A stretch of DNA of 37,459 nt, from the NCBI GenBank assembly GCA_035557125.1, contig DATMEC010000256.1, forward strand, positions 1 to 37,459. Direction: 5' to 3'. A program made the position numbers and the translations under genes. Origin of the DNA: Steroidobacteraceae bacterium (GTDB lineage Bacteria > Pseudomonadota > Gammaproteobacteria > Steroidobacterales > Steroidobacteraceae). The notes under the pieces were generated by a model. The model was not told where the DNA came from, made no database searches, and saw only the letters and a list, made by a program, of their open reading frames with translations. Shown here piece by piece: positions 8,629-33,845 of this stretch. Every line of letters begins with the position of its first letter. Position 1 is the first letter of the stretch.

Positions 8629-8638
8629 GGTTGCGCCG

Positions 8639-11712: not shown

Positions 11713-12548
11713 CGTGGCAGATTCCGCGCCGTGGTGTCGCGCTCATCGGCGAGCCAAACGTCGCTTGCCTCGTCGCCGCTGAATCGCCGCTCCCCGTACT
11801 CGCGGATGCGGCTGCCCGGAACCTTGGTCAGCGGCGTGTAGCGAGGATGCTGGGAATCCTTGTACGGGTCGTTGCGCGCGGCGTTGTAGCTGCAGATCAT
11901 CGACCAGCGCGGGTTCATCGACTTGTTCTGGTCCGACCGATGCAGCGTGTTGCAATGGAAGAAGAGGACGTCGCCCGGTTCCATCTCGACGTGCACGAGC
12001 TCCTGCCGCTTCAGGACCTCCTTCACGCGCTCGATGTCGGCCCCGGCCTGCTCGCCGGTGAGGACGTGGTCGATGCGGCCCAGGTGATACGAGCCGCGCA
12101 CCACCTGCAGGCAGCCGTTCTCGCGCGTCGCGCGGTCGACCGCGATGAAGGCGCTTCCCATCCATGGATTGAGGACGCCGTTGTGGTACCAGTAGCCGTA
12201 GTCCTGATGCCAGGTCCACGCACCGCCGGTCAACGGGTCCTTCATGATCATCTTGGAGTGATAGTGGTAGACCTCGCCGCCCAGGAGCTTCTCCATCGAT
12301 CCGACGATGGACTCCGAGCGCGCGATCATGCCGTAGATCGTGTCGGTAGGATGGTTCCAGAGCGACAGTCGCACCGTGCCGCCTTCGCCATCCGCGCGCC
12401 CGAAAGAATGCTGGTCGAGCACGCGGTCTTCGCGCGCCGCGCGCGCGAGGAGATCCACCTCGACGGCGTCGAGCATGCCGCGTGCCAGCACGAAGCCGTC
12501 GGCGTTGAATGCGCCGACTTCCGCATCGCCGATCGGTCCGCTGGTCAT
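11709..12548 (-). CDS. PhyH (phytanoyl-CoA dioxygenase) family Fe(II)/2-oxoglutarate oxygenase, cytoplasmic
   Basis: C-terminal 279 codons of ORF 11709..13649, starting at ATG 12548 (MTSGPIGDAEVGAFNADGFVLARG). HxD triad context WTWHQDYGYW and distal His FFHCNTLHRSDQN. No signal peptide. 4-nt overlaps at both ends. Confidence 0.75.
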   Translation of the reverse strand: MTSGPIGDAEVGAFNADGFVLARGMLDAVEVDLLARAAREDRVLDQHSFGRADGEGGTVRLSLWNHPTDTIYGMIARSESIVGSMEKLLGGEVYHYHSKMIMKDPLTGGAWTWHQDYGYWYHNGVLNPWMGSAFIAVDRATRENGCLQVVRGSYHLGRIDHVLTGEQAGADIERVKEVLKRQELVHVEMEPGDVLFFHCNTLHRSDQNKSMNPRWSMICSYNAARNDPYKDSQHPRYTPLTKVPGSRIREYGERRFSGDEASDVWLADERDTTARNLPR

Positions 12549-13881: not shown

Positions 13882-16089
13882 CTATTCCCTGGCGAGTATT
13901 TTCAACATCTCGCCAATCTCCGGATTCGACATGAACGCGCGCCACAGGAGCCCCGTGCGGTGGTTCTCGACCATCGCGACGATCGGCGCCTGGTTCAGGC
14001 CCATGTAATGTGCGGACAGCCAGCTCTGGGTCGGGTTGTAGTTGTCGCGCGGGCCGTAGATGCCCCAGAGCTCAGCGCCGAGCTCGCGGTAGAAGTGCTT
14101 GAACGCGGCCATCGACGCTTCGGGCGTGTACGGGAACGAGGCGAGCGCCCCGGTCAGCGTGATCGTGCCGTCGTCGTTCCACTGGTCCGGGGCCGGCGTC
14201 GTGTAACCGTTCCAGCCAAAGCTCGCCGTCAATCCCCAGGCGTTCGCCCCATAACCCTTGAAACCTTTGGGATTCGCGATGCAATAAGCCCGGTTGATCT
14301 CGGCGATGCGGCGGTTGTTGTCGAAGTACGAGTCCGTGTACCGGTCGCGCAGGGCACGCGGGTCGATGCCCATGAACATGTAGTGGATGAAAAAGAGAGG
14401 CCCGCCGCTGCTGACGCCGACGTCGAGCTTGATGCCGTAGTAGCTGTTGCCGTTGGCGTAGAGCCGGCCGTCGGGGCTGCCGGACCAGCCCTGCCGGTAG
14501 TCCTGCGCGCGCTTGTCCTGGCTCGCCCAGCCACTGTAGTACAGGCTCGCCGGCACCGGGTGCGTGGGCGAGGCGATCCCCAGCAGGTAGGTCAGCTGGG
14601 TCTCGTTGAACCCGATCAGCGGGTGCTGGATTCGGTATCCCCACTGCGGCGACCAGTGCCAGTAGAGGAACGGACTGTCGGCCGTCATGCGGAACCAGTC
14701 CCATTCCACCGCATGCCAGAGCGCTGTGATCCGCTCGCGCAGCGACTTCTCGCGCCGCGTGCCGCGGTCGAAGTATCCGCGCGCCGTCAGCAGCCCCTGG
14801 ATCATGTACGAGGTCTCGATGATGTCGCCGCCGTTGTCGTACATACCGAAGAGGGCCATCGTCCCGCCGGTGTCCTCGTTGTAGTAGTGCGACCAGGCGC
14901 CGTGATAGCGCGGCGCGCGCTCGAGGAAAGACACGAGCGTTTCGAGCCGCTCGAGGCCCTGGTCGCGCGTGATGAACCTGCGGTCGACGGCCGCGATCAG
15001 GGCGCTGAGGCCGAGCCCCGTCGCGCCCGTGGCCAGCACGCGGTCGTCACCCGGCAGGTTTTCGCGCGCCATACCGGTGCTAGCGCTCGACGCTTCCCAG
15101 TAGTAGCGGAAGGCCGCCTCCTGCAGCATGTCGAGTAGTTCGTCGTCCGTCATCTCGCGTGTTGCCGCCGTGACCGCGGCCGATGCACTTGACTGGCGCC
15201 CCTTCCAGTCCGCGGCTGCGACCTGGTAACGCGCCGTAACGCCCGACCGGCCGATGAAGTCGGCGTATCGGTTGACGCCCGGCCGTTGCGTGCCGACCGG
15301 CAGGAACGGCCCGCCGTCGATCGAGCGGGACACGACGTAGTACTCCGCGGCGCTTTCCACGGGCGCGCGCCATTGCACGTCGATATGGCGGTCATAACCC
15401 TTCGCCGACACGCCATCCGGCACCGGCAATGCCGTCGCGGCCGCGCCTGCCGCGGTTTCGTCGTCGATCCGGATGTCGTCGACGATCAAAACGTGCTTCT
15501 TTCCGTCCGCGCGCCGTTGGTGAAGAATGACGCTTTGCAGGCGCTCGGATCGAAACTGGTAAACGGACGCCGAGCGGAGCTTCGCGAACGGAATCCGGAC
15601 GGGTACCCATTCGCCGGCGGGAAGGTCGCCCGTGTAGTCCGCGAGCGGTTCCTCGACGGTGAAGCTGCCAGGCATCGTCGCCACCTGCAGGCCCCCGCGC
15701 GCATCGGACAGCGTCACGTTGGGCAGATCGGCCGCCGCGATGGGTTCCGGCGAATAGACCCAGAAAAAGAGTGTCCCTCCGGCAAAGTCCGGAAATCGAT
15801 TCGGGTAACTCACGAACTGAATTTGCGCATCCCAGCTGCCGCCGGGCACCGAGGTCCACTCGATACGCAAAGCGTTGGGTGCCGTGCGAAATACCGTGGA
15901 TTCCACCGGCAGGCGGTAGTGCATCGAGCGGAGCTGGCTCGGTTCCGTCTCCGCGGCGCTCGACTGGAAGTACTGCTGGAGCTGCTGGCTGTTGTCGAAG
16001 AAGACGTGGCGATAGTAGTCCGACTGCGCTGCAGCAGGATGGCCGGCGCACAGGCCGACGGCGAGGAAGCAGAGTAACGGGCGATTCAT
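13882..16089 (-). CDS. Secreted multi-domain (alpha/alpha)6 glucanase of the putative-glucoamylase/DUF3131 type, most likely a GH144-like endo-beta-1,2-glucanase, with N-terminal CBM-like and Fn3-like modules
   Basis: ORF 13882..16098. ATG 16089 is preferred because AAGGA lies 8 nt upstream. Signal peptide [22 protein letters not shown]. Catalytic region motifs [48 protein letters not shown] and [23 protein letters not shown] resemble proteins annotated as the glucoamylase family (GH144). The family assignment was made from memory only. Confidence 0.65.
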
Positions 16090-16125
16090 CTTGCGCATCC
16101 TTTCGCTTCTGGCAACAGGCCCATG

Positions 16126-21530: not shown

Positions 21531-22487
21531 TCACCGGACCATCGACGCCTCGACAGCACTCAGTGCCGCGCCAATCAGTCCACCTCGCGCGCCGAGGCGC
21601 GCACGGCGGATGCGCACGCGCCGCGCGTACCGGCCCGCCGCAAACTGCGGCAGCGCCGCGCGAAAGCTTTTCCAGTAACGGCCGGGGGCGGCCCCTACGC
21701 CGCCTCCCAGCACGACCAGCGACGGATCCAGGGCGTTGACCAGGATCGCGACGTGGACGGCGAGCTCGGTCGCAGCCGCGTCGACCACCTTGCGTGCGAT
21801 GCCGGGCCGAAAGCGCGCCGCGCGGCAGACCTGCTCCGCATCGTCGGCGCGGTAGCCCATCGCGTTCGCGCGGCGCACCAGGGCGGGTCCCGACGCGCGG
21901 GATTCGAGCGGAGCGAACTCCGTACTGCCATTGCGGGCGCCGATGGCACTGGTCGGGCCGCTGGCGAACCCGATGGCGTGTCCATGTGTCCCGAACCAGG
22001 GCCGACCGTCGACGAACAGGGTCGAGCTGATACCCGTGCCGACGCCGACGTAGAGAAAGGTCGGGCTGCCGCGTGCCGCGCCAAGGCGCGCCTCGGCGAG
22101 GGCCGCTGTTCGCACATCCGAAGCGATGATCACGTCGCCGTATTCGGCAAATGCCTTTCGCACGCGCGACGACCGCCACGGCAGTACCGCGCGGCTTTCG
22201 ATCTCGCCCTTCGGCCCGACGAGCTCGGGCACGCCGATGCCCACCTTGTCCACCGACAACCCAGACCTGTTGCCGGCTTGCACGACTTCGCGCGCGATGG
22301 TCGCCGCGCGCGCCAGCGCCTGCCGACCGCCATCAGCGGCATCCGTCGGGATCGATCGAACGTGCCGGACCGACCCGGATCGCGGCACGAAGAGGCCGGC
22401 CCGGATGCTGGTGCCGCCAACGTCGATGCCGAGCACACAACGCTGCCGATTGCGCGCACGGCCTATGCGGCGCGAGGCGTCGCTCAT
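21531..22487 (-). CDS. ROK-family sugar kinase (divergent, Cys-less)
   Basis: ORF 21531..22487. Motifs CVLGIDVGGTSIRAG (DxGGT phosphate-1), SDVRTAALAEARLGAARG and YVGVGTGISSTLFVDG. The usual CxCGxxGC zinc motif is absent. Confidence 0.75.
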   Translation of the reverse strand: MSDASRRIGRARNRQRCVLGIDVGGTSIRAGLFVPRSGSVRHVRSIPTDAADGGRQALARAATIAREVVQAGNRSGLSVDKVGIGVPELVGPKGEIESRAVLPWRSSRVRKAFAEYGDVIIASDVRTAALAEARLGAARGSPTFLYVGVGTGISSTLFVDGRPWFGTHGHAIGFASGPTSAIGARNGSTEFAPLESRASGPALVRRANAMGYRADDAEQVCRAARFRPGIARKVVDAAATELAVHVAILVNALDPSLVVLGGGVGAAPGRYWKSFRAALPQFAAGRYARRVRIRRARLGARGGLIGAALSAVEASMVR

Positions 22488-23329
22488 GGCAGGTATCTCG
22501 GCGCGACGCCGAGCATCGCGGTGGCGGCCCCGGAGAAGGACAGGACTTCGTACTGCCCCGATTGGGGAATGAACACGGCGTCGCGCGGGCCGAGCGGGAA
22601 CGTCGTTGACTGGGACTTCCAGTGCGTGCGGACCATGAGTTCGCCGGAAATGCCGACGATCATCGCGTCGCCGCCGTGCGCGGTTTTCTCGCCTGTGGCG
22701 CCCGCCGGCACCTGAAGCTCGGCGACGGTCAGGTGCTCGGTGCTGACGACCAGGCCGACCGCGATTTCGCCTTCCAGCCGCAGCGATCGCTCACGCGGCC
22801 CGATTCGATGCAGGGTCTTGAGCGCGGCCGCGCCGACGAAATTCCCCAGCAGCTCGTCGCGCCGATACACCGGCGCGTCCAGGTATTCCTGTTTCATCGC
22901 ATAGTTGCCGCTCGTGCCTTGCGACGGCGGCGGCGCGAAGAATTCGAGGACGCGCAGCGGTTCTGCGCCATGTGCGCGGACGTGGTGCCAGGTGTCCTTA
23001 CGGAAGAACACTGATTCACCCGCCAGGCACTCGACGACTTCGCCCGTCTGCGGATTGCAGGCCAGCATCGCACCCTGCAACACGTGGAGGACCTCATCCG
23101 CAGCAAACACGGTCCGGAACGCCGGCGAATGCTTGAACCAGTGTCCGGGCGCCATGCCGAACTCGATCACGTGGATCTTGTCGGTCGAGGCATACAACCA
23201 GTCGCCGACGAGCCCTGACTGCTTGTCGCCCCAGACGTGATGCTTGATTTCGCTGCGACGGGCGAGCGCAGGCGCGTCGTAGGTCGGGCGCGGGGAAGGG
23301 GTGTATCCCGATGAACCACTATCGTTCAA
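22484..23329 (-). CDS. Bicupin (two cupin barrels), function unknown
   Basis: ORF 22484..23428, with cupin-like cores in both halves. I prefer the in-frame TTG 23329, which is preceded by GGAGG at 4-nt spacing and lies downstream of the predicted promoter. ATG 23428 is the ORF-track alternative. ATGA overlap with the ROK gene start. Confidence 0.6.
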   Translation of the reverse strand: MNDSGSSGYTPSPRPTYDAPALARRSEIKHHVWGDKQSGLVGDWLYASTDKIHVIEFGMAPGHWFKHSPAFRTVFAADEVLHVLQGAMLACNPQTGEVVECLAGESVFFRKDTWHHVRAHGAEPLRVLEFFAPPPSQGTSGNYAMKQEYLDAPVYRRDELLGNFVGAAALKTLHRIGPRERSLRLEGEIAVGLVVSTEHLTVAELQVPAGATGEKTAHGGDAMIVGISGELMVRTHWKSQSTTFPLGPRDAVFIPQSGQYEVLSFSGAATAMLGVAPRYLP

Positions 23330-23379: not shown

Positions 23380-23408
23380 AATATAGGCTAGCACCGGGAT
23401 CGTTGCAA
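23380..23408 (-). promoter_or_regulatory. Sigma70-like promoter for the minus-strand operon
   Basis: On the minus strand, TTGCAA (23408..23403) is followed by a 17-nt spacer and TATATT (23385..23380). This is the only AT-rich patch in the divergent intergenic region. Confidence 0.4.
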
Positions 23409-23436
23409 CCAGATGCAACCATCGCCAACCAGTTGG
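23402..23436. promoter_or_regulatory. Three 10-bp-phased nGCAACCA repeats plus two short palindromes (candidate operator cluster 1)
   Basis: CAACCA occurs at 23406, 23416 and 23426. The palindrome GTTGCAAC lies at 23402..23409. CCAAC-CA-GTTGG lies at 23425..23436. The cluster overlaps the predicted -35 element. Confidence 0.5.
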
Positions 23437-23552: not shown

Positions 23553-23567
23553 ACGCGATTGACCACA

Positions 23568-24344
23568 ATGACCCGGACCAAGCACCGCCGCCGCCGCACA
23601 CGCCCGTCCCTGGCGGCGCTCAGCACGACCTCTCTCTACGAAACCTGCGCCACGGCGCTGAATCGCGAGATCGAAACCGGGGCCCTGCGGCCCGGGCAAC
23701 GCCTGCCGTCGGAACGTTCGCTGGGCGACGCGCTCGGATTTACGCGCCTCACGGTACGGCGGGCCTTGCAGGTGCTCGCACAGCGCGGCCTGCTGGAGCC
23801 GGACGAACGCCGCGGCTGGCAGGTGCGCAGCGGCCAAGTCAGCGACAGCCTGTCAACGCTCATGGGCTTTACACAGATGGCCCGGATGCGGGGCTTGGTC
23901 GCCAGCTCGCGCATCCTTTCGCTCGAATATCGCGATGCGACTTTCGACGAGTCCGAGGCGCTGCGTGTCGCGCCCGGTGCGCCGATCCTCGACCTTTCGC
24001 GATTGCGCCTTCTTGACGACCGACCGACGGCGATCGAGCGGCTGCGAATGCCGACGAGCCGCCTGCAGTGGCCGGACGGGTTCGACTTCACGGGCTCGAT
24101 CTACGCCGCCCTGGAATCGCGGGGCATCGTGCCCACCGTTGCGGATGCGTACGTCGACGTGGTGGATGCGACCGAGGCCGAAGCGGGCCTGCTCGGCGTG
24201 GCGACCGGCCGCGGCCTGTTGCGCATGAACTGTGTGACCACCGGTGCCGACGAGGTGGTCATCAGTCTCGAGTCGTCCATGTATCACCCGGATCGCTATC
24301 GATTCCGTGCAATTCTCCAGAAGCGCGCGAAGCGGTGGCCCTGA
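23568..24344 (+). CDS. GntR-family transcriptional regulator, HutC subfamily (wHTH + UTRA effector domain)
   Basis: ORF 23559..24344 (TTG 23559 or ATG 23568). The wHTH segment is LPSERSLGDALGFTRLTVRRALQVLAQRGLL. The C-terminal UTRA-like domain covers residues from about position 100 to the end. Confidence 0.85.
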   Translation: MTRTKHRRRRTRPSLAALSTTSLYETCATALNREIETGALRPGQRLPSERSLGDALGFTRLTVRRALQVLAQRGLLEPDERRGWQVRSGQVSDSLSTLMGFTQMARMRGLVASSRILSLEYRDATFDESEALRVAPGAPILDLSRLRLLDDRPTAIERLRMPTSRLQWPDGFDFTGSIYAALESRGIVPTVADAYVDVVDATEAEAGLLGVATGRGLLRMNCVTTGADEVVISLESSMYHPDRYRFRAILQKRAKRWP

Positions 24345-24349
24345 GCCCG

Positions 24350-25705
24350 ATGGCCTTGTGTCGCGCTGCGCCGCGCGGTTTGACGGCGGCGCAGGTCATC
24401 GCGGTCATCTCGGTCATCTCGGTGGGTTGCGGCCCGGACGCAAGTGATGACGGCGCCAGATCCGGCCGCCATGCGGCCGACGGCGATCGCCGCATCCTGG
24501 AGGTCTGGACGCCGGAAAGCGGAAGCCGCCTGCAAATGGTGCAGCAGCGTGCCGACCAGTTTTCCGCCGCGCGTCCCGACGTGAAGATCAGCTTCACCGT
24601 TCGCGACTTTGGCTCGTACCCCGCACAGCTCAAGCTGGCGCTCGCATCGGACAGCGCGCCGGATGTCGTCATCGGCAACCTCGGATGGTCGCTCGACGGC
24701 CCATTGATCAAGGCCGGCCTGCTGCGCCCCCTCGACCCATGGGCGGCGCGCTACGGTTGGGACAAGCGCTTCCCTGAGGTCGCGCAGCGGCAGATGCGCT
24801 TTACCGTCGACGGCAAGCACTTCGGCCGCGGCGCGATATTCGGCATTCCGTATGCCGCAGACGTCATCGGCTGGTTCTACAATGTCGACAAGCTGGAGAA
24901 GCTCGGCGACGGCGTACCGGCCACCCTGGGCGAGCTCGAGTCGGACTTCGAGACCGCCAGAAGGACGGGCGAAGTGCCGATCATGCTGGGCAACAAGCCG
25001 CAATGGCCCGGGCTGCACCTGTTCTATCTCGTCAGCTGCGACCTCGCCTCCGACCGGGAGATCAACGGCATCGTCTTCGGCGACCGATCGGTGCAATGGA
25101 CGGATCCGGGATTCGTCGAAAGCGCCCGGATGCTCGCGCGGTGGAACGCGAGCGGATACATCGCGGACGGAGTTAACAGCATGTCGCCGGCGGATGCCCT
25201 CGCGAGATTCGTCCGCGGTGCCGGCGTGTTCCTGCCGGCAGGCTCCTGGAATGCTGCGGAACTTTCGGCGGCCATGGGCGACGACGTCGCGTTCTTCCTG
25301 ATGCCCCCGGTTCGCAAGGGCGACCCGAGACGCGCGACGGGCAGCGTTGGATATGGTTGGCACATCACTGCAACGAGCGGGCAGGCGGACCTCGCCGCCG
25401 AGTTCATCGACTTCATGACGCAGGAAGCGTTTGCGATCCAGCTCGCTGCAGGCGGCGACATCTCGCCCCTCCCAATCGACGACGCCGTGCCTCGGGCACC
25501 TTCCCGGCTGGCCGGCGAGATCTTCGCGGCCTGGCAAAGCGTCCTGGCGAACGGGACGCTGCTGCCGTACCTCGATTTTTCCGCGCCGAACGGGGCCGAG
25601 GTCATCTATCCGACGATGCAGTCGATCATCGCTGGGCAGGTGGAAGCCCGGCAGGGTCTCGAGCTGATCGAGCAATCACGCAAAGAATTCCTGGATTCGC
25701 AGTGA
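24350..25705 (+). CDS. ABC transporter sugar-binding protein (family 1 solute-binding protein)
   Basis: In-frame ATG 24350 within ORF 24068..25705, 5 nt after the regulator stop codon. Signal peptide MALCRAAPRGLTAAQVIAVISVISVGCG, with a possible lipobox-like Cys. Size and composition are typical of carbohydrate-binding proteins. Confidence 0.8.
   Translation: MALCRAAPRGLTAAQVIAVISVISVGCGPDASDDGARSGRHAADGDRRILEVWTPESGSRLQMVQQRADQFSAARPDVKISFTVRDFGSYPAQLKLALASDSAPDVVIGNLGWSLDGPLIKAGLLRPLDPWAARYGWDKRFPEVAQRQMRFTVDGKHFGRGAIFGIPYAADVIGWFYNVDKLEKLGDGVPATLGELESDFETARRTGEVPIMLGNKPQWPGLHLFYLVSCDLASDREINGIVFGDRSVQWTDPGFVESARMLARWNASGYIADGVNSMSPADALARFVRGAGVFLPAGSWNAAELSAAMGDDVAFFLMPPVRKGDPRRATGSVGYGWHITATSGQADLAAEFIDFMTQEAFAIQLAAGGDISPLPIDDAVPRAPSRLAGEIFAAWQSVLANGTLLPYLDFSAPNGAEVIYPTMQSIIAGQVEARQGLELIEQSRKEFLDSQ
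24394..24423 (+). repeat. 9-bp tandem repeat, three copies, inside the binding-protein signal peptide
   Basis: The sequence reads GGTCATCGC GGTCATCTC GGTCATCTC GGT and encodes the VIAVISVISV part of the hydrophobic core. Confidence 0.9.
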
Positions 25706-26577
25706 TGACCGCGCGCGGCCGCAGGGCGTTGCCGTATCTATACCTGCTGCCCGCGTTCCTTTTCTTCGTGCCATTCGTCCTCGTGCCGTTTGCCCACACG
25801 GTGGGCCTGTCCTTCTACGACTGGGACGGACTCACGCGCGCTGCATTCACCGGGCTCGGCAACTATCGCGAGGCGTTCGGCAGCGCGCTCGTGCGGTCGG
25901 CCTTCGGCCATGCGTTCGTCCTCATATTCTTCTTCGGCGTGCTGCCCGTCCTGCTGGCCCTCCCGCTCGCCGTGAGCAGCGTGAACGCGAGCATCCCGGG
26001 CGGCAATGCGCTCCGGACCCTGATCTTCCTGCCGCAGGCCATATCCACGGTCGTGGTCGGGGTGAGCTGGGGGTGGATCCTCGCGCTGGACGGCCCGCTC
26101 AACGCGGGATTGCACGCATTCGGCCTCGATTGGGCCGCGGTCGACTGGCTCGGGAGCTTTACCTGGGCGCTGCCGAGCCTCGGCATCGTCGGCACGTGGA
26201 CGCTGACCGGATTGTGCGTCGCCCTGTTTTTCGCGGGCCTGCAGCAGATTCCAGGCTCGCTTTACGACGCGGCTGCGGTCGACGGGGCCGGGCGCCTGCG
26301 CGAATTCCTGGCTGTCACACTGCCAGGGCTCAAGGGGTTGATCGCGGTCGCGCTAACCGTCACCGTCATCTCGGCGCTGCGTGCCTTCGATCTCGTGTTC
26401 GTGACGACGCGCGGCGGACCCGGCACCGAGACGGTCGTGCCGGGAATCCTGATCTACAGGCGCGCGTTCGAGGACGGCCGGCTGGGTTCTGCAGCAGCAA
26501 TTGCGGTGATCCTCAGCATCGTCGTATTCGCCGTAACCCTCCTCATCAACCGCATTGCGGACCGGAACGCGCCGTGA
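25705..26577 (+). CDS. ABC sugar transporter permease (MalF/UgpA-like)
   Basis: ATG 25705 within ORF 25357..26577 (TGATG junction with the binding-protein gene). Hydrophobic protein of 6-TM type with the EAA-like loop YDAAAVDGAGRLREFLAVTLPGLKG. Confidence 0.85.
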   Translation: MTARGRRALPYLYLLPAFLFFVPFVLVPFAHTVGLSFYDWDGLTRAAFTGLGNYREAFGSALVRSAFGHAFVLIFFFGVLPVLLALPLAVSSVNASIPGGNALRTLIFLPQAISTVVVGVSWGWILALDGPLNAGLHAFGLDWAAVDWLGSFTWALPSLGIVGTWTLTGLCVALFFAGLQQIPGSLYDAAAVDGAGRLREFLAVTLPGLKGLIAVALTVTVISALRAFDLVFVTTRGGPGTETVVPGILIYRRAFEDGRLGSAAAIAVILSIVVFAVTLLINRIADRNAP

Positions 26578-27398
26578 GCATCGCGCCGCGAAGCGGGGCG
26601 TGGAGCGCTGCGCTGCTGGTCTCGTTCGCTGCGATCACGATCTTGCCGATCCTCGGCATCGTGCTCCTCAGCCTGCAGCCGGAGCAGGCGCAGCTGTCCG
26701 GCTTCGAGCTTCCGGACCGCCTGCACTTCGAAAACTATGCGCGCGCCTGGGACGTCGCGCAGTTCGCGAGCTACCTGCGATCGAGCGTGATCGTCAGCGT
26801 CGCGGTGGTGGCGGGCACGGTCGTGGTGTCGACGTTGAGCGGCTACGCCTTCGGCACCATGCGCTTTGCCGGCCAGGACGTTCTCTTCTACCTGCTCCTG
26901 GCTGGCCTCGTCATACCCTTCGAGGCCGTGATTGTGCCGCTGTACGTCGAGCTCCGTGCCGGGCATCTCACGAACACCTACTGGTCGGTCGTCCTGCCGC
27001 TGATCGGCGTAAATTCCTCGTTCGGGACGTTCTGGATGCGCGCGTATTTTCGTGCGGTGCCCCGCCAGCTGATCGAGGCGGCGTCGCTGGACGGCGCGGG
27101 GTCGCTGCGTATCCTCTGGAGGGTCCTGTTGCCGGGGGCCCGCCCGGCGCTGCTGACGCTGGTGGTCCTTGTCTTCATGTGGTCGTGGAACGAGTTCCTG
27201 CTCCCGCTCGTGATGCTGTCGCGCGAGGACTTGCGCACCGCACCGCTCGGGCTCGCATTCTTCGCCGGCCGCTACACGGTCGACCGTTCCGGCATGGCGG
27301 CCGCGGCGGTGATGGTCGCGCTTCCGGTGGTGGTGCTGTTCATTGCCACGCATCGGCGCTTCGTGCATGGCATGTGGGTGGGGGCAGTGAAGCAATGA
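26574..27398 (+). CDS. ABC sugar transporter permease (MalG/UgpE-like)
   Basis: GTG 26574 within ORF 26073..27398 (GTGA overlap). EAA loop IEAASLDGAGSLRILWRVLLPGARPAL. Confidence 0.85.
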   Translation: MSIAPRSGAWSAALLVSFAAITILPILGIVLLSLQPEQAQLSGFELPDRLHFENYARAWDVAQFASYLRSSVIVSVAVVAGTVVVSTLSGYAFGTMRFAGQDVLFYLLLAGLVIPFEAVIVPLYVELRAGHLTNTYWSVVLPLIGVNSSFGTFWMRAYFRAVPRQLIEAASLDGAGSLRILWRVLLPGARPALLTLVVLVFMWSWNEFLLPLVMLSREDLRTAPLGLAFFAGRYTVDRSGMAAAAVMVALPVVVLFIATHRRFVHGMWVGAVKQ

Positions 27399-28168
27399 GG
27401 CCACCGCCCTTGCCGCCGCCGCTGCGGCTGACGCCGGCGCAGGTGACGTCGTTCCGGCGCGACGGCTTCGTCCGCGTCGAAGCGCTCACCGCGCAGGCCG
27501 AAGTCGAAGTCCTCCGCGGCCTGTACGACGAGCTGTTTCATCGGGAGGGCGGGTTCGACGCCGGCGATCGCATCGAACTGAACGCTGACCTCGCTCATGC
27601 GCCGCTGCCGCAGATCGTCAACCCCGAACGCTATGCGCCACGTCTGATTGAGGGACAGGCGTATCGCAATGCGCGGGAGATCGCCCGACAGTTGCTGGGG
27701 TTCGACTGCGTGCCGACCGGCAATCACGCCATCCTGAAGCCGGCCCGGATCGGCGGCGCCACGCCCTGGCACCAGGACGAAGCGTACTGGGATCCGCGAT
27801 TTTCCCACCGTGCGGTGAGCATCTGGCTTGCGCTGCAACCCGCGACGCTCGAGAACGGCTGCCCGCGCTTCATACCGGGGACTCATCGAGGGCCGGTATT
27901 GCCGCACGAGCTGATCTCGGCGGATTCGCACGGGCTGCGACTTTGCAAGCCGGTGCCGGATGCGCCGGAGATATCGTGCGAGTTGCCGGCGGCCGGGGCG
28001 ACCATCCACGACGGAAGAACGGTGCACAGTGCCGGGCCGAACCTGTCCGGGCAGCCGCGTCGCGCACTGGTGTTCGGATTCGGCCTCGCTCCCGTGCCGC
28101 TCGACACGCCCAATCGCTATCCGTGGCAACGGCCGGAATGGTCGGGCCCGATCCTTCGAGGACACTGA
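27395..28168 (+). CDS. Second PhyH-family Fe(II)/2-oxoglutarate oxygenase
   Basis: ATG 27395 within ORF 26555..28168 (ATGA overlap with permease 2). Triad context ATPWHQDEAYW and distal His DGRTVHSAGPN. No signal peptide. Confidence 0.7.
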   Translation: MRPPPLPPPLRLTPAQVTSFRRDGFVRVEALTAQAEVEVLRGLYDELFHREGGFDAGDRIELNADLAHAPLPQIVNPERYAPRLIEGQAYRNAREIARQLLGFDCVPTGNHAILKPARIGGATPWHQDEAYWDPRFSHRAVSIWLALQPATLENGCPRFIPGTHRGPVLPHELISADSHGLRLCKPVPDAPEISCELPAAGATIHDGRTVHSAGPNLSGQPRRALVFGFGLAPVPLDTPNRYPWQRPEWSGPILRGH

Positions 28169-28169
28169 C

Positions 28170-29270
28170 ATGCTTCGAATCGGAGTGCTGGGACTCGGCA
28201 GCGTATTCCTCGGGCCCTACCGCCAGTTGATTCGCCAGCTCGAGCAAAGCGGCCAGGCGCGCCTGACCGCCGCATTCGACATCGACCGCGAAAAGACTGC
28301 AGCGGTCGCGGCCACGCATCCGTCGCTCGCGACGCCCGCCACTGCGGGCGAGCTCATCGCGCGCGACGACGTCGATGCGGTCCTCGTGCTGACCAGCATG
28401 AATGAGCACGCGGAGCTTGCGCAGGCAGGTCTTCGAGCGGGCAAGCACGTCCTGGTCGAGAAGCCGATGGCGACGAGCCTCGCAGCCGCGCATGAGCTGT
28501 TGCAGCTCAGCAAGCGCGCGAAAGGCCTCCTGGTCTGCGCCCCGCACATCGTGCTGTCGCCGACGTACCGGGCTATGCATGCCGAAGTGCAGGCCGGCGG
28601 GATCGGCAAGGTCGTGCTGGCCCGCGCACGTTACGGATGGGCCGGTCCCTGGTGGGGACGATGGTTCTACCGTCCGGGTGGGGGCGCACTGTTCGACCTG
28701 GCCGTCTACAACCTGAAGAGCCTCTGCGGATTCATGGGTCCCGTCCAGCGCGTGAGCGCCATGGTCGGCACGGCGATCCCCAGACGCATGGCCGAGGGTG
28801 TCGAGATCGACGTACTGGCCGACGACAATGCGCAGGTCCTCCTGGATTTCGGCGAAAGCCGGTTTGCCTGCATCACGACCGGCTTCACGATGCAGAAGTA
28901 CCGCAGCCCGGCCATCGAGCTCTACGGCACCGAAGGTGTCCTGCAGATGCTCGGCGACGACTGGGCGCCGCAAGGCTACGAACGGTGGGGCAAGGAACGC
29001 GAGGTGTGGGAGTTCCACGAGGAGAGCGAGCCACAGTGGCCATGGACCGTCGGGTTGCGCCATCTCGTCGAGTGCGTGGCCGCCGGGACGCGGCCCGTGA
29101 ACCAGCCTGAGCACGCCTTGCACTGCCTCGAGGTCATCCTGGCGGCCCAGACTTCGGCCCGGGAAGGGCGGCACGTGTCGGTCGAATCCGGCTTTCCGGC
29201 GCTCGACTTCCGCAGCTTGCCGCCCGAAACGAACGACCACCGCCGCCGGCACGACCCGAGAACCGCGTAA
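28170..29270 (+). CDS. Gfo/Idh/MocA-family NAD(P)-dependent oxidoreductase
   Basis: ATG 28170 within ORF 27960..29270, 1 nt after the PhyH stop codon. Rossmann start MLRIGVLGLGSV and the family motif HVLVEKPMA. Confidence 0.85.
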   Translation: MLRIGVLGLGSVFLGPYRQLIRQLEQSGQARLTAAFDIDREKTAAVAATHPSLATPATAGELIARDDVDAVLVLTSMNEHAELAQAGLRAGKHVLVEKPMATSLAAAHELLQLSKRAKGLLVCAPHIVLSPTYRAMHAEVQAGGIGKVVLARARYGWAGPWWGRWFYRPGGGALFDLAVYNLKSLCGFMGPVQRVSAMVGTAIPRRMAEGVEIDVLADDNAQVLLDFGESRFACITTGFTMQKYRSPAIELYGTEGVLQMLGDDWAPQGYERWGKEREVWEFHEESEPQWPWTVGLRHLVECVAAGTRPVNQPEHALHCLEVILAAQTSAREGRHVSVESGFPALDFRSLPPETNDHRRRHDPRTA

Positions 29271-29285
29271 GGACCGCGCACACCG

Positions 29286-30386
29286 ATGGCATCGATCACG
29301 ATCGAAGGCGCCAGCCGCAGGTTCGCGGACGGTACCTGTGCACTGGACGGCGTGAACCTTGCCATCGAGGACGGCGAATTTCTCGTGCTCGTCGGGCCCT
29401 CCGGTTGCGGCAAGTCGACGCTGCTGCGGGCCGTGGCGGGCCTCGAGTACCTCGACAGCGGCCGCGTGCTCATCGGCGGGGTGGACGTCACCGGCAAGCC
29501 CGCGGGCGAGCGGGACGTTGCGATGGTGTTCCAGAACTATGCGCTGTACCCGCAGATGACGGTACGCGACAACATCGAGTTCGGCCTCAAGTCGCGCGGC
29601 ATGAGCGGGCACGAAAGGCGCGAGCGCGTTGCCGACGTCGCAGCGCTGCTCGGACTCGGGTCGCTGCTGTCGCGCCGTCCTTCAGAATTGTCCGGTGGCC
29701 AGTTGCAGCGGGTCGCCATGGGCCGCGCCATCGCGCGACGGCCCCGGGCGTTCCTGATGGACGAGCCGCTCTCCAACCTGGACGCCCAACTGCGCGCATC
29801 CATGCGCTCCGAACTTTCCAGGATGCGCGAGCGCCTCGCGGTCACGACCATCTATGTCACGCACGACCAGGTCGAGGCCATGACGCTGGGGGAACGCGTG
29901 GCCGTGATGCGGGAAGGCGTGCTTCAGCAGTGCGACACGCCGCGCAGGCTCTTCGACCAGCCGCGTAACCGGTTCGTGGCGACCTTCATGGGGTCGCCGC
30001 CGATGAACCTGCTGAACGCGACGATCAGCGAGGGCGTCGTTCGCTTCGGCAGGTACGAACTGCCGCTAAAAGCCGGCGTCAGACTACCCGTCGCCGTCCC
30101 AACGGAACTGTTCATCGGCCTGCGGCCGGGAGACTTTGCTCTCGATCGCAGCGCGCCCGGCCATTGGCCGCGAATCGAGGTGGTGCCGCACGCCGTCGAG
30201 GAGCATGGACACCAACGGATCCTGCGCTTTCGCGCAGATGGCCCGTCGGGCGGCGGCCCCGAGGCCGACGTCAGCGTGCTCCTGAGCGGCCGGGATGTCG
30301 TCGCGGTGGGGGAGAGGTTGCGCCTGGGCGTCGACACGGCGCATGTGCACTTCTTCGATTCTGAAAGCGGCAATGCGCTGGACTGA
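29286..30386 (+). CDS. ABC sugar transporter ATP-binding protein (MalK/UgpC/MsiK-like)
   Basis: ORF 29286..30386. Walker A GPSGCGKST, signature LSGGQLQRVAMGRA, Walker B FLMDEPLSNLD, and a C-terminal regulatory (TOBE-like) domain. Confidence 0.9.
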   Translation: MASITIEGASRRFADGTCALDGVNLAIEDGEFLVLVGPSGCGKSTLLRAVAGLEYLDSGRVLIGGVDVTGKPAGERDVAMVFQNYALYPQMTVRDNIEFGLKSRGMSGHERRERVADVAALLGLGSLLSRRPSELSGGQLQRVAMGRAIARRPRAFLMDEPLSNLDAQLRASMRSELSRMRERLAVTTIYVTHDQVEAMTLGERVAVMREGVLQQCDTPRRLFDQPRNRFVATFMGSPPMNLLNATISEGVVRFGRYELPLKAGVRLPVAVPTELFIGLRPGDFALDRSAPGHWPRIEVVPHAVEEHGHQRILRFRADGPSGGGPEADVSVLLSGRDVVAVGERLRLGVDTAHVHFFDSESGNALD

Positions 30387-30401
30387 ACGGAGAGCGAAAT
30401 G

Positions 30402-32744
30402 ATGCGAATGCTGTGCGCCACAGTCACCTTTTCATTCTTGCTCGCTGGCTACGCCCTGGAGGTACGGTCTGACGCGACTGCCTCAGTGCCCGATGCCCGC
30501 ACCGGCATCTATGACCCCAGTCTCGACACTCGGGTGGAAGCCCTGCTGGGCAGGATGACGCTCGAGGAGAAGGTCGGCCAGCTGGTCCAGTACTCAGCGG
30601 GCCAGCCGACCGGTCCCGGCACCGGGCGCACGGACTACGAGGACATGATCGCCAAGGGCCAGATCGGCGCCCTGTTCAACATCTCGACGGCGAAGGAAAC
30701 CAATGCGTACCAGCGATTGGCCGTCGAGAAATCCCGCCTCAAGATTCCGCTCGTTTTCGGGCTGGACGTCATCCACGGCTTCCGCACGATATTTCCGGTT
30801 CCGCTCGCCCTGGCGTCGACCTGGGATCCGCCGCTGGTGGAACAGGCGGCCCGGGTGGCGGCGCGCGAAGCCTCGGCCACCGGGATTCGCTGGACGTTTT
30901 CTCCCATGGTGGACATCGCCCGCGATGCGCGCTGGGGCCGCATCACGGAAGGCGCCGGTGAAGACCCGTATCTCGGCTCGGAGATGGCGGCCGCCTATGT
31001 TCGCGGCTACCAGGGCACGCGCCTCGACGCACCGGACAGCCTCGCCGCCACCGCCAAACATTTCGTCGGATATGGGGCGGCGGAGGGCGGCCGCGACTAC
31101 AACACCACCGAAATCTCGGAGCACACGCTGCGCCAGATCTATCTGCCGCCGTTTCGCGCAGCCGTGGACGCCGGCGCAGCCACGATCATGTCCGCGTTCA
31201 ACTCGCTGAACGGCATTCCGACGTCCGCCAATCCGTTCATCCTGCGCCAGATCCTGCGCGAGGAATGGGGCTTTCGCGGCGTCGTCGACAGCGACTGGGA
31301 ATCGGTGCGCGAGCTGATACACCACGGCGTCGCGATCGATCGCGAGACGGCGGCCTTGAAAGCCTTCATGGCTGGCGTCGACCTCGACATGGCGAGCAGC
31401 GTCTACCACGATCACCTGGTGAAGCTGGTGAGCGCCGGCAAAGTCCCGGAAGCGCGGATCGACGATTCGGTGCGGAACGTCCTCAGGCTGAAGTTCGCGC
31501 TCGGTCTTTTTGAGCGACCTTATGTCGACGAAGCGCGCGAGCATGACGCCATGCTGCGGCCTGACGGCCTCGCGCTGGCGCAGAAGGCGGCCGAACGGTC
31601 CTTCGTACTGCTGAAGAATGACTCCGTGAGTGGGGATGCACCCATACTTCCGCTTTCGGACCGCGCGGGTCGCATTGCGCTGATCGGGCCGCTGGCCGAC
31701 GATCTCTCGAGCGCGCTGGGATCCTGGGCCGGGCTGGGCAAGGTCGAGGACGTCGTGTCTTTCCGCACGGCGCTCGCGAGGCGCGTCGGAGAACAGAACC
31801 TCGTTCATCACAAGGGTGTCGGCATCACGGAAGGTTCCGACGAGGACCTGGCCGCCGCCGTGGCGGCTGCCGCGAAAGCGGACGTCGTGATCCTGACGCT
31901 GGGCGAGGACGGCGGCGGAATGACCGGGGAGGCCACGTCGCGGGCGTTCCTTGGTCTGCCGGGCCGCCAGCAAGAGCTGCTGGAAAAGATCGTCGCCACG
32001 GGAAAGCCGGTGGTCCTTGTTCTCTTCAGCGGGCGGCCACTGACGCTGCCCTGGGCGTTCGAAAAGGTCCCGGCGGTGCTGGCAGCGTGGCTCCCCGGCA
32101 TCCAGGCGGGACCCGCGCTCGTGCGCACGCTCTATGGCGAGTCGAGTCCAACGGGAAAGCTGGTGGTCAGCTGGCCGCGCAGCGTGGGCCAGTTGCCGCT
32201 CTATTACAACGCGCTCAACACGGGACGTCCGGCCGACAAGAGTGACCTGACGAATCCCCTCGGCGGAGCCGACGACACGTACGTGTCGCGTTACCTCGAC
32301 GAGCGAAACGATCCGCGGTTCCCGTTCGGCTTCGGCCTTTCCTATACGACTTTCGGCTATGGCCCCACGAAGATCGACGGCAGCCGGCTCGAGGCTTCAG
32401 GACTCACGGCGAAACTTCGCGACGCCGCAGGTCGGGACGAAGGCGTGTTGACGGCCAGCGCCGAGGTCACGAACACAGGCTCACGCCCGGGCGAAGAGGT
32501 CGTTCAACTTTACGTTCGGCTCATCGGGACCAGTACTTCGCAGCCAGTCCGTGCGCTGAAGGGATTCCAGAGAATCTCGCTCGCTCCCGGCGAAACCAAG
32601 AAGGTGACGTTCACCCTCGAGCCCGATGCACTCGCGCTGTGGAACGATCGCAACCAATGGGTCGTCGAGCCGGCGAAAGTGGCCGTGTGGATCAGTCCCG
32701 ATTCCGCGCACGGCACGCCCGCCACGCTCCAGATCCTGCCATAG
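30402..32744 (+). CDS. bglX: Periplasmic GH3 beta-glucosidase (BglX-like), paralog B
   Basis: ORF 30399..32744 (tandem ATGs at 30399 and 30402; GGAGAG upstream). Near-collinear with paralog A: 94 of the first 100 aligned residues after ARTGIYDP are identical by my manual count. There is a short insertion near residue ~690. Confidence 0.9.
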   Translation: MRMLCATVTFSFLLAGYALEVRSDATASVPDARTGIYDPSLDTRVEALLGRMTLEEKVGQLVQYSAGQPTGPGTGRTDYEDMIAKGQIGALFNISTAKETNAYQRLAVEKSRLKIPLVFGLDVIHGFRTIFPVPLALASTWDPPLVEQAARVAAREASATGIRWTFSPMVDIARDARWGRITEGAGEDPYLGSEMAAAYVRGYQGTRLDAPDSLAATAKHFVGYGAAEGGRDYNTTEISEHTLRQIYLPPFRAAVDAGAATIMSAFNSLNGIPTSANPFILRQILREEWGFRGVVDSDWESVRELIHHGVAIDRETAALKAFMAGVDLDMASSVYHDHLVKLVSAGKVPEARIDDSVRNVLRLKFALGLFERPYVDEAREHDAMLRPDGLALAQKAAERSFVLLKNDSVSGDAPILPLSDRAGRIALIGPLADDLSSALGSWAGLGKVEDVVSFRTALARRVGEQNLVHHKGVGITEGSDEDLAAAVAAAAKADVVILTLGEDGGGMTGEATSRAFLGLPGRQQELLEKIVATGKPVVLVLFSGRPLTLPWAFEKVPAVLAAWLPGIQAGPALVRTLYGESSPTGKLVVSWPRSVGQLPLYYNALNTGRPADKSDLTNPLGGADDTYVSRYLDERNDPRFPFGFGLSYTTFGYGPTKIDGSRLEASGLTAKLRDAAGRDEGVLTASAEVTNTGSRPGEEVVQLYVRLIGTSTSQPVRALKGFQRISLAPGETKKVTFTLEPDALALWNDRNQWVVEPAKVAVWISPDSAHGTPATLQILP

Positions 32745-32765: not shown

Positions 32766-33845
32766 ATGGCACTGCCCGCGAAAGACGGATTCCGGATGCC
32801 CGCGGAGTGGGAGCCGCACGCCGGCACCTGGATGCTCTGGCCGGAGCGGGCGGACAACTGGCGTGACAACGCGGCGCCCGCGCAGCGCGCGTTCGCGGCG
32901 GTCGCCGCCGCCATCGCGAAGAGCGAGCCGGTGACCATGGGCGTGTCGGCGGACCAGTTCGAGGCGGCGCGGGCGATGCTCCCCGGCGGCGTGCGCGTCG
33001 TCGAGATCTCCTCCAACGACGCCTGGATGCGCGACGTCGGCCCGACCTTCGTCGTGAACCGCCGCCGGCAGGTGCGCGGCGTCGACTGGATGTTCAATGC
33101 CTGGGGCGGCAAGGCAGGCGGCGCCTATGCGGACTGGGCCCTCGACGACCAGATCGCCGCCAAGGTCCTCGAAATCGAGTCGAGGCCGCGCTACCGGGCG
33201 CCGTTCGTCCTCGAGGGCGGCGCAGTCCACGTGGACGGGCTGGGCACGCTCCTGACCACCGAGGAGTGCCTGCTGAACCCGAACCGGAACCCGACACTCA
33301 GGCGCTCCCAGATCGAGAGCCTGCTCGAGCGCCACCTCGGCGTGCGCGAGATCATCTGGCTCGGGCGCGGCGTGTTCAACGACGAGACCGACGGCCACGT
33401 GGACAACCTGTGCTGCTTCGTGCGCCCCGGCGAGGTCGTGCTCACCTGGTGCGACGACCCGGAAGACCCGCAGTACGACATCTCGCGCGCGGCGTATGAG
33501 GTTCTCGCGCAGGCGCGCGACGCGCGAGGCCGCAGGATCAGGATCCACAAGCTGATGCAGCCGGGGCCGCTCTACATGACCGAGGCAGAGGCCGCCGGCA
33601 TCGAGCGCTCTGCCGACTGCAAGCCACGGCGCTGCGGGGACCGGCTCGCCGGGTCATACGTGAACTTCTACATCGCCAACCGCCACATCGTGATGCCGCT
33701 GCTCGACGCGCGCACCGATCGCGCGGCGAAAGCGACGCTTTCGAAGCTGTTCCCACGCCGCAAGGTGATCGGTGTGCCCTCGCGCGAAATCCTGCTCGGT
33801 GGCGGCAACATCCACTGCATCACCCAGCAGCAGCCGCGCGTCTGA
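32766..33845 (+). CDS. aguA: Agmatine deiminase (PAD_porph family)
   Basis: ORF 32766..33845. Motifs [23 protein letters not shown] and the C-terminal catalytic Cys motif [13 protein letters not shown]. Confidence 0.85.

Follow-up and report, generated by a model that had tools for sequence, protein, structure and literature searches.

Introduction

Bacterial sugar importers that are coupled to oxidoreductases are known. In the thuEFGKAB locus, which serves trehalose and sucrose in Sinorhizobium and Agrobacterium, a CUT1 importer is co-transcribed with a Gfo/Idh/MocA oxidoreductase, coupling import to oxidation. Members of this family that act as 3-dehydrogenases (ThuB, DgpA, levoglucosan dehydrogenase, BT_2158 and BT_2159) start the known oxidative glycoside pathways, and the 3-keto pathways represented by levoglucosan LgdA-C, DgpA-C and Bacteroides BT2157-2160 combine them with accessory metal enzymes and use no classical hydrolase. 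Oxygenases also occur in polysaccharide loci, as in the P450-dependent demethylation of 6-O-methyl-galactose in porphyran utilisation loci, where a modification is removed and standard sugar metabolism follows. The orthosomycin oxygenases EvdO2 and AviO2 (together with HygX, EvdO1 and AviO1) act on C-H bonds adjoining oxygen on oligosaccharides, and the PhyH-family dioxygenase KanJ converts the substituted carbon of a 2'-amino sugar to a ketone, the resulting 2'-keto sugar being reduced to the 2'-hydroxy sugar by the nicotinamide-dependent reductase KanK (PMC5533434). Here, we have analysed a stretch of 37,459 nucleotides from a Steroidobacteraceae bacterium (assembly GCA_035557125.1, contig DATMEC010000256.1), referred to below as the window, in which a PhyH-family Fe(II)/2-oxoglutarate oxygenase (PhyH-1) and a Gfo/Idh/MocA oxidoreductase (Gfo) are encoded between the permease and ATPase genes of a CUT1 sugar importer.

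Our data are best explained if PhyH-1, Gfo, a metal-binding bicupin and a ROK-family hexokinase form a conserved, co-inherited and cytoplasmic sugar-conversion module, which is regulated by a GntR/UTRA protein and fed by the CUT1 importer. The composition of this cassette is clearly conserved, and it looks like an undescribed oxidative route for an imported beta-glucoside, for which we propose the following substrate and chemistry. The importer would take up a beta-glucoside or disaccharide, and PhyH-1, consuming O2 and 2-oxoglutarate, would hydroxylate a sugar C-H that bears or adjoins a heteroatom, either at the anomeric carbon or at the carbon carrying the glycosidic oxygen. The hemi-orthoester or hemiketal so formed would collapse, such that the bond is cleaved or edited and an aldonolactone or a keto-sugar such as glucosone is left. 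Gfo would reduce this oxidised sugar to an ordinary hexose, the bicupin would isomerise or epimerise where needed and the ROK kinase would phosphorylate the hexose. We put this chain forward as a whole tentatively, as something possible rather than probable, and the evidence bearing on it and on its alternatives is set out below.

Gene organisation of the module

The forward-strand operon consists of nine genes, running from the GntR/UTRA regulator to an agmatine deiminase and joined by overlaps or tiny gaps:

23559..24344, forward strand, GntR/UTRA (HutC-type) transcription regulator (PF00392 and PF07702), first gene of the operon
24350..25705, forward strand, solute-binding protein (SBP) of CUT1 type (SBP_bac_1, PF01547/PF13416) with a probable lipoprotein signal (..ISVGC)
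25705..26577, forward strand, ABC permease 1 (BPD_transp_1, PF00528)
26574..27398, forward strand, ABC permease 2 (BPD_transp_1, PF00528)
27395..28168, forward strand, PhyH-1, Fe(II)/2-oxoglutarate oxygenase of 257 aa (PF05721, E 1e-30)
28170..29270, forward strand, Gfo/Idh/MocA oxidoreductase of 366 aa, predicted to be NAD(H)-dependent (PF01408, PF22725 and PF02894)
29286..30386, forward strand, ABC ATPase of MalK/UgpC type (PF00005 and OB_MalK; UgpC model E 1e-119)
30399..32744, forward strand, GH3, BglX-type beta-glucosidase (BglX model 698 bits against a cut-off of 666), with a signal-like N-terminus
32766..33845, forward strand, agmatine deiminase (aguA model 571 bits against a cut-off of 382)

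Two further members of the module open a divergent operon, and the region between the two operons holds a candidate control site:

22484..23329, reverse strand, bicupin of 281 aa with a TTG start (Cupin_2), first gene of the divergent operon
21531..22487, reverse strand, ROK-family sugar kinase (PF00480), second gene of the divergent operon
23380..23423, divergent intergenic region, candidate promoter and operator (promoter-like site with an inverted repeat)

The order SBP, permease, permease, PhyH-1, Gfo, ATPase and GH3, which a first-pass annotation of the window had reported, is borne out by the open reading frames and their domain matches. The bicupin, the ROK kinase and the GntR/UTRA regulator are partners that go beyond that annotation. 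All parts expected of a CUT1 importer are present, namely the binding protein (SBP_bac_1), a pair of MalF/G-type permeases and an ATPase of MalK type carrying an OB domain at its C-terminus, and the signal-like N-terminus of the BglX-type GH3 suggests that this enzyme is periplasmic.

The stop codon of the regulator lies 5 nt ahead of the SBP gene. SBP and permease 1 then overlap at a TGATG (25703-25707), the two permeases at a GTGA (26574-26577) and permease 2 and PhyH-1 at an ATGA (27395-27398), with a single nucleotide (28169) separating PhyH-1 from Gfo and 15 nt (29271-29285) separating Gfo from the ATPase gene. These junctions agree with those first described; the one that required correction is the gap between ATPase and GH3, given as 15 nt, which measures 12 nt to the first ATG (30387-30398) and would be 15 nt long only with translation starting at the next ATG (30402). 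A gap of 21 nt follows between GH3 and agmatine deiminase, and no terminator-like site above chance level was found inside the operon. Bicupin and ROK kinase share an ATGA overlap, so that translational coupling is seen between permease and PhyH-1, between PhyH-1 and Gfo and between bicupin and kinase. The position of the agmatine deiminase is occupied by different genes in two Steroidobacteraceae relatives (L001 and L002), and this gene therefore probably lies outside the sugar module. The G+C content across the window is 63-70%, and the nearest relatives of its proteins are labelled Steroidobacteraceae or Povalibacter.

Conservation of the module

A scan for PhyH homologs using one genome per species yielded 80 loci, and ten window proteins, together with the SIS protein of one related locus (L004), were compared by tblastn against all 88 loci. 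The gene-called contigs whose PhyH is 57-79% identical to PhyH-1 carry the same core:

L001 and L002, other Steroidobacteraceae
L004 and L008, two other lineages, PhyH 65-67% identical
L006, Asanoa iriomotensis
L007, metagenome contig

The gene order, which goes far beyond chance, recurs in Steroidobacteraceae, other Proteobacteria and Actinomycetota, with SBP identities of 44-86% in related loci. Where PhyH is at least 51% identical, all 24 non-redundant loci have a nearby Gfo of 52-87% identity, which in 21 of them lies less than 120 nt downstream of PhyH on the same strand. Among 31 loci with PhyH of at least 48% identity and flanks of at least 3 kb on each side, Gfo is found in 25, GntR/UTRA in 23, the bicupin in 20, ROK in 18 and a CUT1 permease together with SBP in 19. 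Below 48% identity the partners fall away: across 25 loci, Gfo, GntR and the bicupin were each detected once, ROK three times and permease plus SBP not at all. From this step in partner counts we conclude that the conserved unit is PhyH, Gfo, bicupin, ROK and GntR, the importer being its usual but not constant companion. Four loci (L019, L029, L030 and L058) keep the enzymes without CUT1 genes and place them beside an SBP_bac_5 transporter, a LacI regulator and a GH35 gene. The same GH35 stands beside PhyH and Gfo on an 11.5-kb contig (L022), on which bicupin, ROK and GntR were not detected.

The first-pass annotation had tied the two redox enzymes to the importer and had also named the contrary outcome, in which homologous ABC operons never carry these genes. 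We checked for this, and homologous ABC operons do carry both genes at this position. A chance insertion of PhyH and Gfo between transporter genes is likewise rejected, given that their order is conserved and their translation coupled. The annotation's further description of the transporter genes as interrupted holds in so far as the enzymes lie between permease and ATPase, but the history of the operon offers the best reading of this arrangement. In Proteobacteria the ATPase gene comes after Gfo, in one locus (L024) it comes after PhyH, and it is absent from most actinobacterial operons (L006, L007, L018, L020, L021, L023, L025 and L027), which fits the use of a shared MsiK-type ATPase as in Streptomyces. 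Some actinobacterial operons have an AraC gene between permease and PhyH. In the PhyH tree described below, the sister group of the proteobacterial clade consists of L007 and L023 (the latter actinobacterial), and both of these loci have PhyH directly after the permease. We infer from this that PhyH and Gfo are original operon members with the ATPase gene at the operon end, a two-gene insertion being less likely.

In one proteobacterial lineage only (L004 and L005), genes for a GbcA-like Rieske oxygenase and a homolog of the MttB methyltransferase family precede the module upstream of SBP on the same strand, and a GlmS-like SIS gene follows it. One 441-aa protein (P0075) appeared to be a fusion of PhyH and Gfo and was considered as Rosetta-stone evidence, but was set aside as an assembly artefact caused by a frameshift after the PhyH core. 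A search of plasmids for annotated PhyH orthologs gave matches of at most 38% identity, and the second-best of these, from Paraburkholderia, lies among amino-acid transport and FAD enzyme genes and is not orthologous.

The oxygenase PhyH-1

PhyH-1 matches PF05721 at 108 bits (cut-off 22) over all profile positions, 1-213 of 213. The residues H126, D128, H205, H211 and R222/R223 are invariant in 12 homologs and align with those of EvdO2. PhyH-1 thus retains an intact HxD...H iron site and the basic residue for the 2-oxoglutarate carboxylate, and should be an active, O2-consuming Fe(II)/2-oxoglutarate oxygenase. The complete site argues for an oxygenase rather than for a protein standing in for ThuA or a lyase, which was the role first proposed for it; moreover, neither the window nor the related loci scanned contain a ThuA, a xylose-isomerase-like lyase or a DUF1080 hydrolase.

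By far the nearest solved relative of PhyH-1 is EvdO2 (4xab, E 1.6e-51, 43% identity over 234 residues), with EvdMO1, AviO1, MysH, KanJ (E 5.5e-5) and SnoK/SnoN as weaker matches; the search of solved structures gave no match to the orthosomycin oxygenase HygX. The nearest characterised relatives all activate a C-H adjoining O or N on sugars or sugar-like rings. HygX is reported to abstract the anomeric hydrogen, and the substrate of EvdO2 itself is still unknown (PMC13374393).

In a neighbour-joining tree of 84 PhyH relatives with EvdO2, built without support values, EvdO2 falls outside the whole set and the module-associated PhyH proteins form one clade. We had considered that EvdO2 might be nested within the catabolic clade, as a sign of recruitment, and the tree speaks against this, if weakly in the absence of bootstrapping. 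Despite the 43% identity, PhyH-1 is thus not a member of the orthosomycin EvdO2/AviO2 group, and its neighbours are transporter, kinase and glycosidase genes, not the glycosyltransferases or methyltransferases of antibiotic clusters.

Relatives below 48% identity, from Armatimonadota, Planctomycetota and Bacteroidota, lack all of the module partners and occur near AraC regulators and DUF2961, heparinase-like and CBM9 genes, which supports a carbohydrate theme and not the same pathway. Two planctomycetal loci (L037 and L043) hold three to four PhyH paralogs of 44-47% identity inside 13 kb, beside AraC regulators and a URO-D-like gene, and in a Cytophagia locus (L084) the PhyH relative is flanked by a heparinase II/III-like gene and a DUF2961 gene. 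A general link between the broader EvdO2-like clade and carbohydrate loci is suggested by these cases.

The oxidoreductase Gfo

Gfo has the hallmarks of its family, with a Rossmann glycine-rich loop, the EKP lysine and a C-terminal alpha/beta domain with an Asp-x3-His/Tyr motif. Invariant positions in the Gfo alignment, whose mean column identity is 75%, are G8-x-G10, D37, E97-K98-P99, D176 and Y180. All solved relatives are distant, the best being scyllo-inositol/L-glucose dehydrogenase at 78 bits, for which the catalytic triad is K106-D191-H195 (PMC5969746). When the two are aligned, Tyr180 of Gfo takes the position of the catalytic His195, and Asp37, located where beta-2 ends, falls on the Asp that specifies NAD. 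Together these residues place Gfo, by prediction, in a K98-D176-Y180 (K-D-Y), NAD(H)-type class. Since its characterised relatives are all about equally distant, no substrate can be transferred to Gfo from them.

It had been suggested in the first-pass annotation that the imported oligosaccharide may undergo C3-keto oxidation, and our comparisons do not support this. Gfo reaches 26-50 bits with the NCBIfam models of the glycoside, disaccharide and levoglucosan 3-dehydrogenases, whose cut-offs are 650-750 (LevoglcsnDh 49.5 against 650, BT_2159_fam 31 against 650 and BT_2158_fam 26 against 750). The solved 3-oxidising relatives, DgpA and 6a3f, which we take to be levoglucosan dehydrogenase, reach 37-53 bits and so fall below scyllo-inositol/L-glucose dehydrogenase and 1,5-anhydrofructose reductase. 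Gfo does not therefore belong with the glycoside 3-dehydrogenases ThuB, DgpA, LgdA and BT_2158/2159. These scores bear equally on an alternative in which Gfo acts first, as an NAD+-dependent glycoside dehydrogenase. The bond of its keto-glycoside product (oxidised at C3, for instance) would then break by elimination, the bicupin would serve as the lyase or isomerase in place of PhyH-1, and PhyH-1 would work on a downstream product. In its favour, the NAD-type Asp37 suits a dehydrogenase, two of the enzymes that start such pathways (DgpA and levoglucosan dehydrogenase) are recognisably related to Gfo, and the bicupin has a conserved His/Glu/His set. However, the 3-dehydrogenases rank below inositol/aldose 1-dehydrogenases and 2-ketoreductases, no scanned locus has a ThuA, a PF01261 lyase or a DUF1080 hydrolase, and PhyH-1 would be left without a role despite the tightest conserved link of all, that of PhyH followed by Gfo. 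We regard a pathway that begins with Gfo as distinctly unlikely.

A further alternative is an aerobic route for 1,5-anhydro-D-fructose or a 1,5-anhydroalditol, in which Gfo would act at the ketone/alditol step, PhyH-1 would hydroxylate C1 to give mannose or glucose and the bicupin and ROK kinase would lead on to glycolysis. Such a route provides a role for all four enzymes, and structures of 1,5-anhydrofructose reductase (2glx and 4koa, 60-68 bits) rank with the better matches to Gfo. GH31 is the family of the known alpha-glucan lyases, and a GH31 gene is present in the window, although it resembles an alpha-glucosidase or alpha-xylosidase and the neighbours that recur beside the module are beta-glucosidases, not glucan lyases. 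Precedent for the oxygenase step comes from Rhizobiaceae, where 1,5-anhydrofructose is converted to anhydromannitol and then, by C1 hydroxylation through a still unidentified hydroxylase, to mannose (PMC12441222), and from PhyH relatives that attack the carbon adjoining the ring oxygen (PMC13374393). Nevertheless, no close PhyH ortholog was found on rhizobial plasmids, to which the search was confined, and the scores for 1,5-anhydrofructose reductase are only those given above. With Tyr180 in place of the catalytic His and an Asp37 of NAD(H) type, Gfo does not fit the reductase group, which has a K-D-H triad and uses NADP(H). We give this route the slimmest chance of those considered here.

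The bicupin, the ROK kinase and the intergenic region

The bicupin has 1710 homologs, in which H67, E79 and H115/H116 are invariant, and finds no match in the PDB or in NCBIfam. The AlphaFold2 model of the protein is a confident one (pLDDT 88), and the structures that it matches are all generic bicupins, with oxalate decarboxylase, quercetinase and ureidoglycine aminohydrolase among them. The kinase is a ROK-family member by its PF00480 match over residues 19-309 of 318, without a helix-turn-helix domain, and appears to be glucokinase-like, Thermus glucokinase (3vov, E 5e-27) being its best solved relative. In the divergent intergenic region the only promoter-like site is TTGCAA-17-TATATT on the reverse strand. 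Its -35 element is overlapped by an inverted repeat, GATCGTTGCA / TGCAACCATC, which is a candidate operator for the GntR/UTRA regulator.

Glycosidase context and substrate

Beyond the ROK kinase, the divergent operon encodes a TonB-dependent receptor, a GH3, a GH144, a major facilitator superfamily (MFS) sugar transporter, a second PhyH, a cytochrome b561, a GH31, a GH97-GH16 fusion and a membrane oxygenase of the fatty-acid-hydroxylase family. The feature that bears most on the substrate is:

13882..16125, reverse strand, GH144 enzyme, in the same gene string as the bicupin, ROK kinase, TonB receptor and GH3

Over its full length, the best solved relative of this GH144 is BDI_3064 (5z06, E 4e-208), known as a sophorose-releasing exo-enzyme, followed by the endo-beta-1,2-glucanase 5gzh. 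Solved relatives of the GH3 in the importer operon (30399..32744) include BT_3567 (5xxl) and Lin1840 (4zoa), both known as beta-1,2-glucosidases. The GH144 gene, the TonB receptor gene and the two GH3 genes together point to a beta-1,2-glucan utilisation locus in a gammaproteobacterium, which should release sophorose-type beta-glucosides in the periplasm. In related loci, a GH1 gene (BGL equivalog, above cut-off) directly follows Gfo in 6 actinobacterial loci, a GH35 lies near the module in 5 loci and aligns over ~570 residues with the beta-1,2-glucosyltransferase 7vkw, and a GH116 stands beside a PhyH in L056. The recurring neighbour theme is thus that of a beta-glucoside, with two independent hints of a beta-1,2 linkage, and the earlier suggestion of a beta-gluco-disaccharide such as sophorose appears a reasonable guess in the light of the BDI_3064-like GH144, the BT_3567/Lin1840-like GH3 and the GH1, GH35 and GH116 genes elsewhere.

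A different substrate is considered if one follows the logic of KanJ and KanK, with PhyH-1 removing a substituent from a bound or free hexose (by deamination or O-demethylation) and Gfo reducing the ketone. Glucosamine residues of chitosan oligomers could, for example, be converted by way of a 2-keto sugar to glucose or mannose, which would pass to beta-glucosidases and the ROK kinase. The KanJ/KanK conversion is itself the precedent for this, and both KanJ and MysH are detectable relatives of PhyH-1, but the KanJ similarity is weak when set against that of EvdO2 (E values as above). The best solved relatives of SBP are the chitin-oligosaccharide binders NagB1 (7ehp, E 1e-20) and NagB2, with NgcE a weak match, and the regulator is of the GntR/UTRA type, a class that includes NagR and DasR. 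The context within the window is nevertheless one of beta-1,2-glucan and not chitosan. The GlmS-like SIS gene of L004/L005 lies within the module but is confined to one lineage, and the GH35 neighbours match exo-beta-D-glucosaminidase over only ~190 residues of their N-terminal part, far less than they match the beta-1,2-glucosyltransferase. Sugar editing would also explain the beta-glucosidases that accompany the module. On balance we consider it unlikely.

It may also be that the glycosidase neighbours are incidental and that the module serves a non-glycoside sugar conjugate or a cyclitol, such as an Amadori compound (a fructosamine whose oxidative cleavage would yield glucosone and an amine) or, as in the catabolism of rhizopines, a methylated inositol or an inosamine. 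The frl operon of Bacillus subtilis has the same frame, with a GntR/UTRA regulator, a CUT1 importer, an SIS deglycase and a kinase, and an SIS gene is again present in L004/L005. Inositol dehydrogenases are the best family matches of Gfo, and rhizopine catabolism, in which MocA-type dehydrogenases work with an oxygenase, offers a precedent for the pairing. Against this, separate lineages show four different beta-glucosidase families recurring beside the module, hexoses are the substrates of ROK kinases, iol genes are missing from the vicinity and the Rieske and MttB genes beside L004 do not occur outside that lineage. A conjugate or cyclitol substrate is, in our view, highly unlikely.

Further genes of the divergent operon and its surroundings are:

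11709..12548, reverse strand, second PhyH oxygenase of 279 aa, 24% identical to PhyH-1 and unrelated to it
4169..5512, reverse strand, membrane di-iron oxygenase of the fatty-acid-hydroxylase family (PF04116), within the glycoside hydrolase gene string
5377..8697, reverse strand, fusion of GH97 (N, catalytic and C domains) and GH16, ~1100 aa, conserved in L001, L002 and L090
2262..3227 and 3258..4334, forward strand, two open reading frames between the first GH3 and the fatty-acid-hydroxylase gene, one with a weak DUF4886 match and the other without a family match, coding uncertain

Among solved structures, the second PhyH comes closest to 7dt0/7dzz, leucine hydroxylase and ectoine hydroxylase. 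Its start codon (ATG) shares an ATGA with the stop of the MFS sugar transporter gene, and its stop shares a GTGA with the GTG start of cytochrome b561, so that each of the two sugar transporters in the locus shows translational coupling to a PhyH enzyme. The link to the MFS gene is seen in the closest relatives only (L090-L093 and L108), with cytochrome b561 next in only L090 and L091, and the second-PhyH family is widespread, being 62-92% conserved in other contexts. The PF04116 protein is the third oxygenase in one carbohydrate locus and has a homolog at the same position in L002.

Discussion

We have found an oxygenase and an oxidoreductase that are inherited together with a bicupin, a kinase and a regulator, and that usually accompany a sugar importer. 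The gene content, the co-inheritance, the intact catalytic residues and the beta-glucosidase context are the observations on which our proposed chain of PhyH-1 hydroxylation, Gfo reduction and ROK phosphorylation draws, and from them we infer a substrate, a position of attack, an order of steps and a direction for the Gfo reaction. KanJ and KanK provide the precedent for an oxygenase-made keto-sugar that is restored by a reductase.

Several points weigh against this chain. The clade lacks a member with an assigned substrate or product, and since EvdO2 lies outside the clade of the module its chemistry need not transfer. The structure matches of the bicupin, being to the generic fold, yield no function for it. 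An Asp of the NAD type, as at position 37 of Gfo, is found more typically in catabolic dehydrogenases than in reductases, and both KanK and 1,5-anhydrofructose reductase use NADPH. Ordinary beta-glucosidases are present in the same loci, and cleaving a plain glucoside at the expense of O2 and 2-oxoglutarate therefore looks wasteful and unnecessary. Finally, the SBP similarity, the GntR/UTRA class, the GlmS-like SIS gene in L004/L005 and the N-terminal part of GH35 all hint at an amino sugar.

A bolder form of the proposal, which we would call doubtful, is that PhyH-1 acts as a cytoplasmic Fe(II)/2-oxoglutarate 'glycoside oxygenase', which would cleave or unlock beta-glucosidic sugars through hydroxylation of the carbon that flanks the glycosidic or ring oxygen, with Gfo repairing the product to glucose. 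Such oxidative glycoside chemistry is otherwise known from the extracellular copper lytic polysaccharide monooxygenases. If true, this would represent an unrecognised and phylum-spanning oxidative sugar catabolism, and the stock from which the orthoester-forming oxygenases of the orthosomycins arose; in a variant of the same idea, PhyH-1 would be the long-sought aerobic C1 hydroxylase of 1,5-anhydroalditols.

More generally, if the oxygenase acts on the imported sugar, it would add a new step to carbohydrate catabolism, whether by oxidative cleavage, deamination, demethylation or C1 hydroxylation. This would in turn suggest a function for thousands of genes that are annotated only as 'phytanoyl-CoA dioxygenase family' or 'predicted dehydrogenase', as well as an evolutionary origin of the oxygenases that tailor antibiotics. 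Being small, soluble and present in culturable actinomycetes such as Asanoa iriomotensis NBRC 100142 (L006/L016), Nocardioides iriomotensis NBRC 105384 (L030) and Actinopolymorpha spp., the system can be tested directly.

Comparison with known systems

Full-text literature searches for a PhyH-Gfo/Idh/MocA cassette found no paper describing one, and an Fe/2-oxoglutarate oxygenase locked to an importer, Gfo, bicupin and kinase across Proteobacteria, Actinomycetota and Chloroflexota is undescribed in the literature searched. The thuEFGKAB locus shares with ours the importer tied to a Gfo/Idh/MocA enzyme, but its gene order is EFGK followed by AB, which puts the enzymes behind the ATPase; it pairs the oxidoreductase with ThuA, absent here, and it has no Fe/2-oxoglutarate oxygenase, bicupin or ROK kinase. 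Given the lack of ThuA, the other order and the other partners, our locus is not of the thuEFGKAB type. Nor, to judge from model scores far below cut-off and the lack of a TIM-barrel lyase or DUF1080 hydrolase, is it a member of the 3-keto glycoside pathways, which use xylose-isomerase-like TIM barrels and DUF1080 hydrolases and have no oxygenase. The porphyran loci differ in employing a P450 with redox partners on another substrate, without a coupled set of Gfo, bicupin and ROK. PhyH-1 has the same fold and iron site as EvdO2, yet the orthosomycin oxygenases belong to antibiotic clusters and carry out oxidative cyclisation to orthoesters, whereas PhyH-1 is found in uptake and catabolic operons. 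KanJ and KanK are likewise biosynthetic, KanJ is only distantly related to PhyH-1, KanK uses NADPH, and neither a transporter nor a bicupin or kinase accompanies them. They are nonetheless the sole documented oxygenase-plus-reductase pair of this kind that we found, and so represent the closest mechanistic precedent for the module described here.

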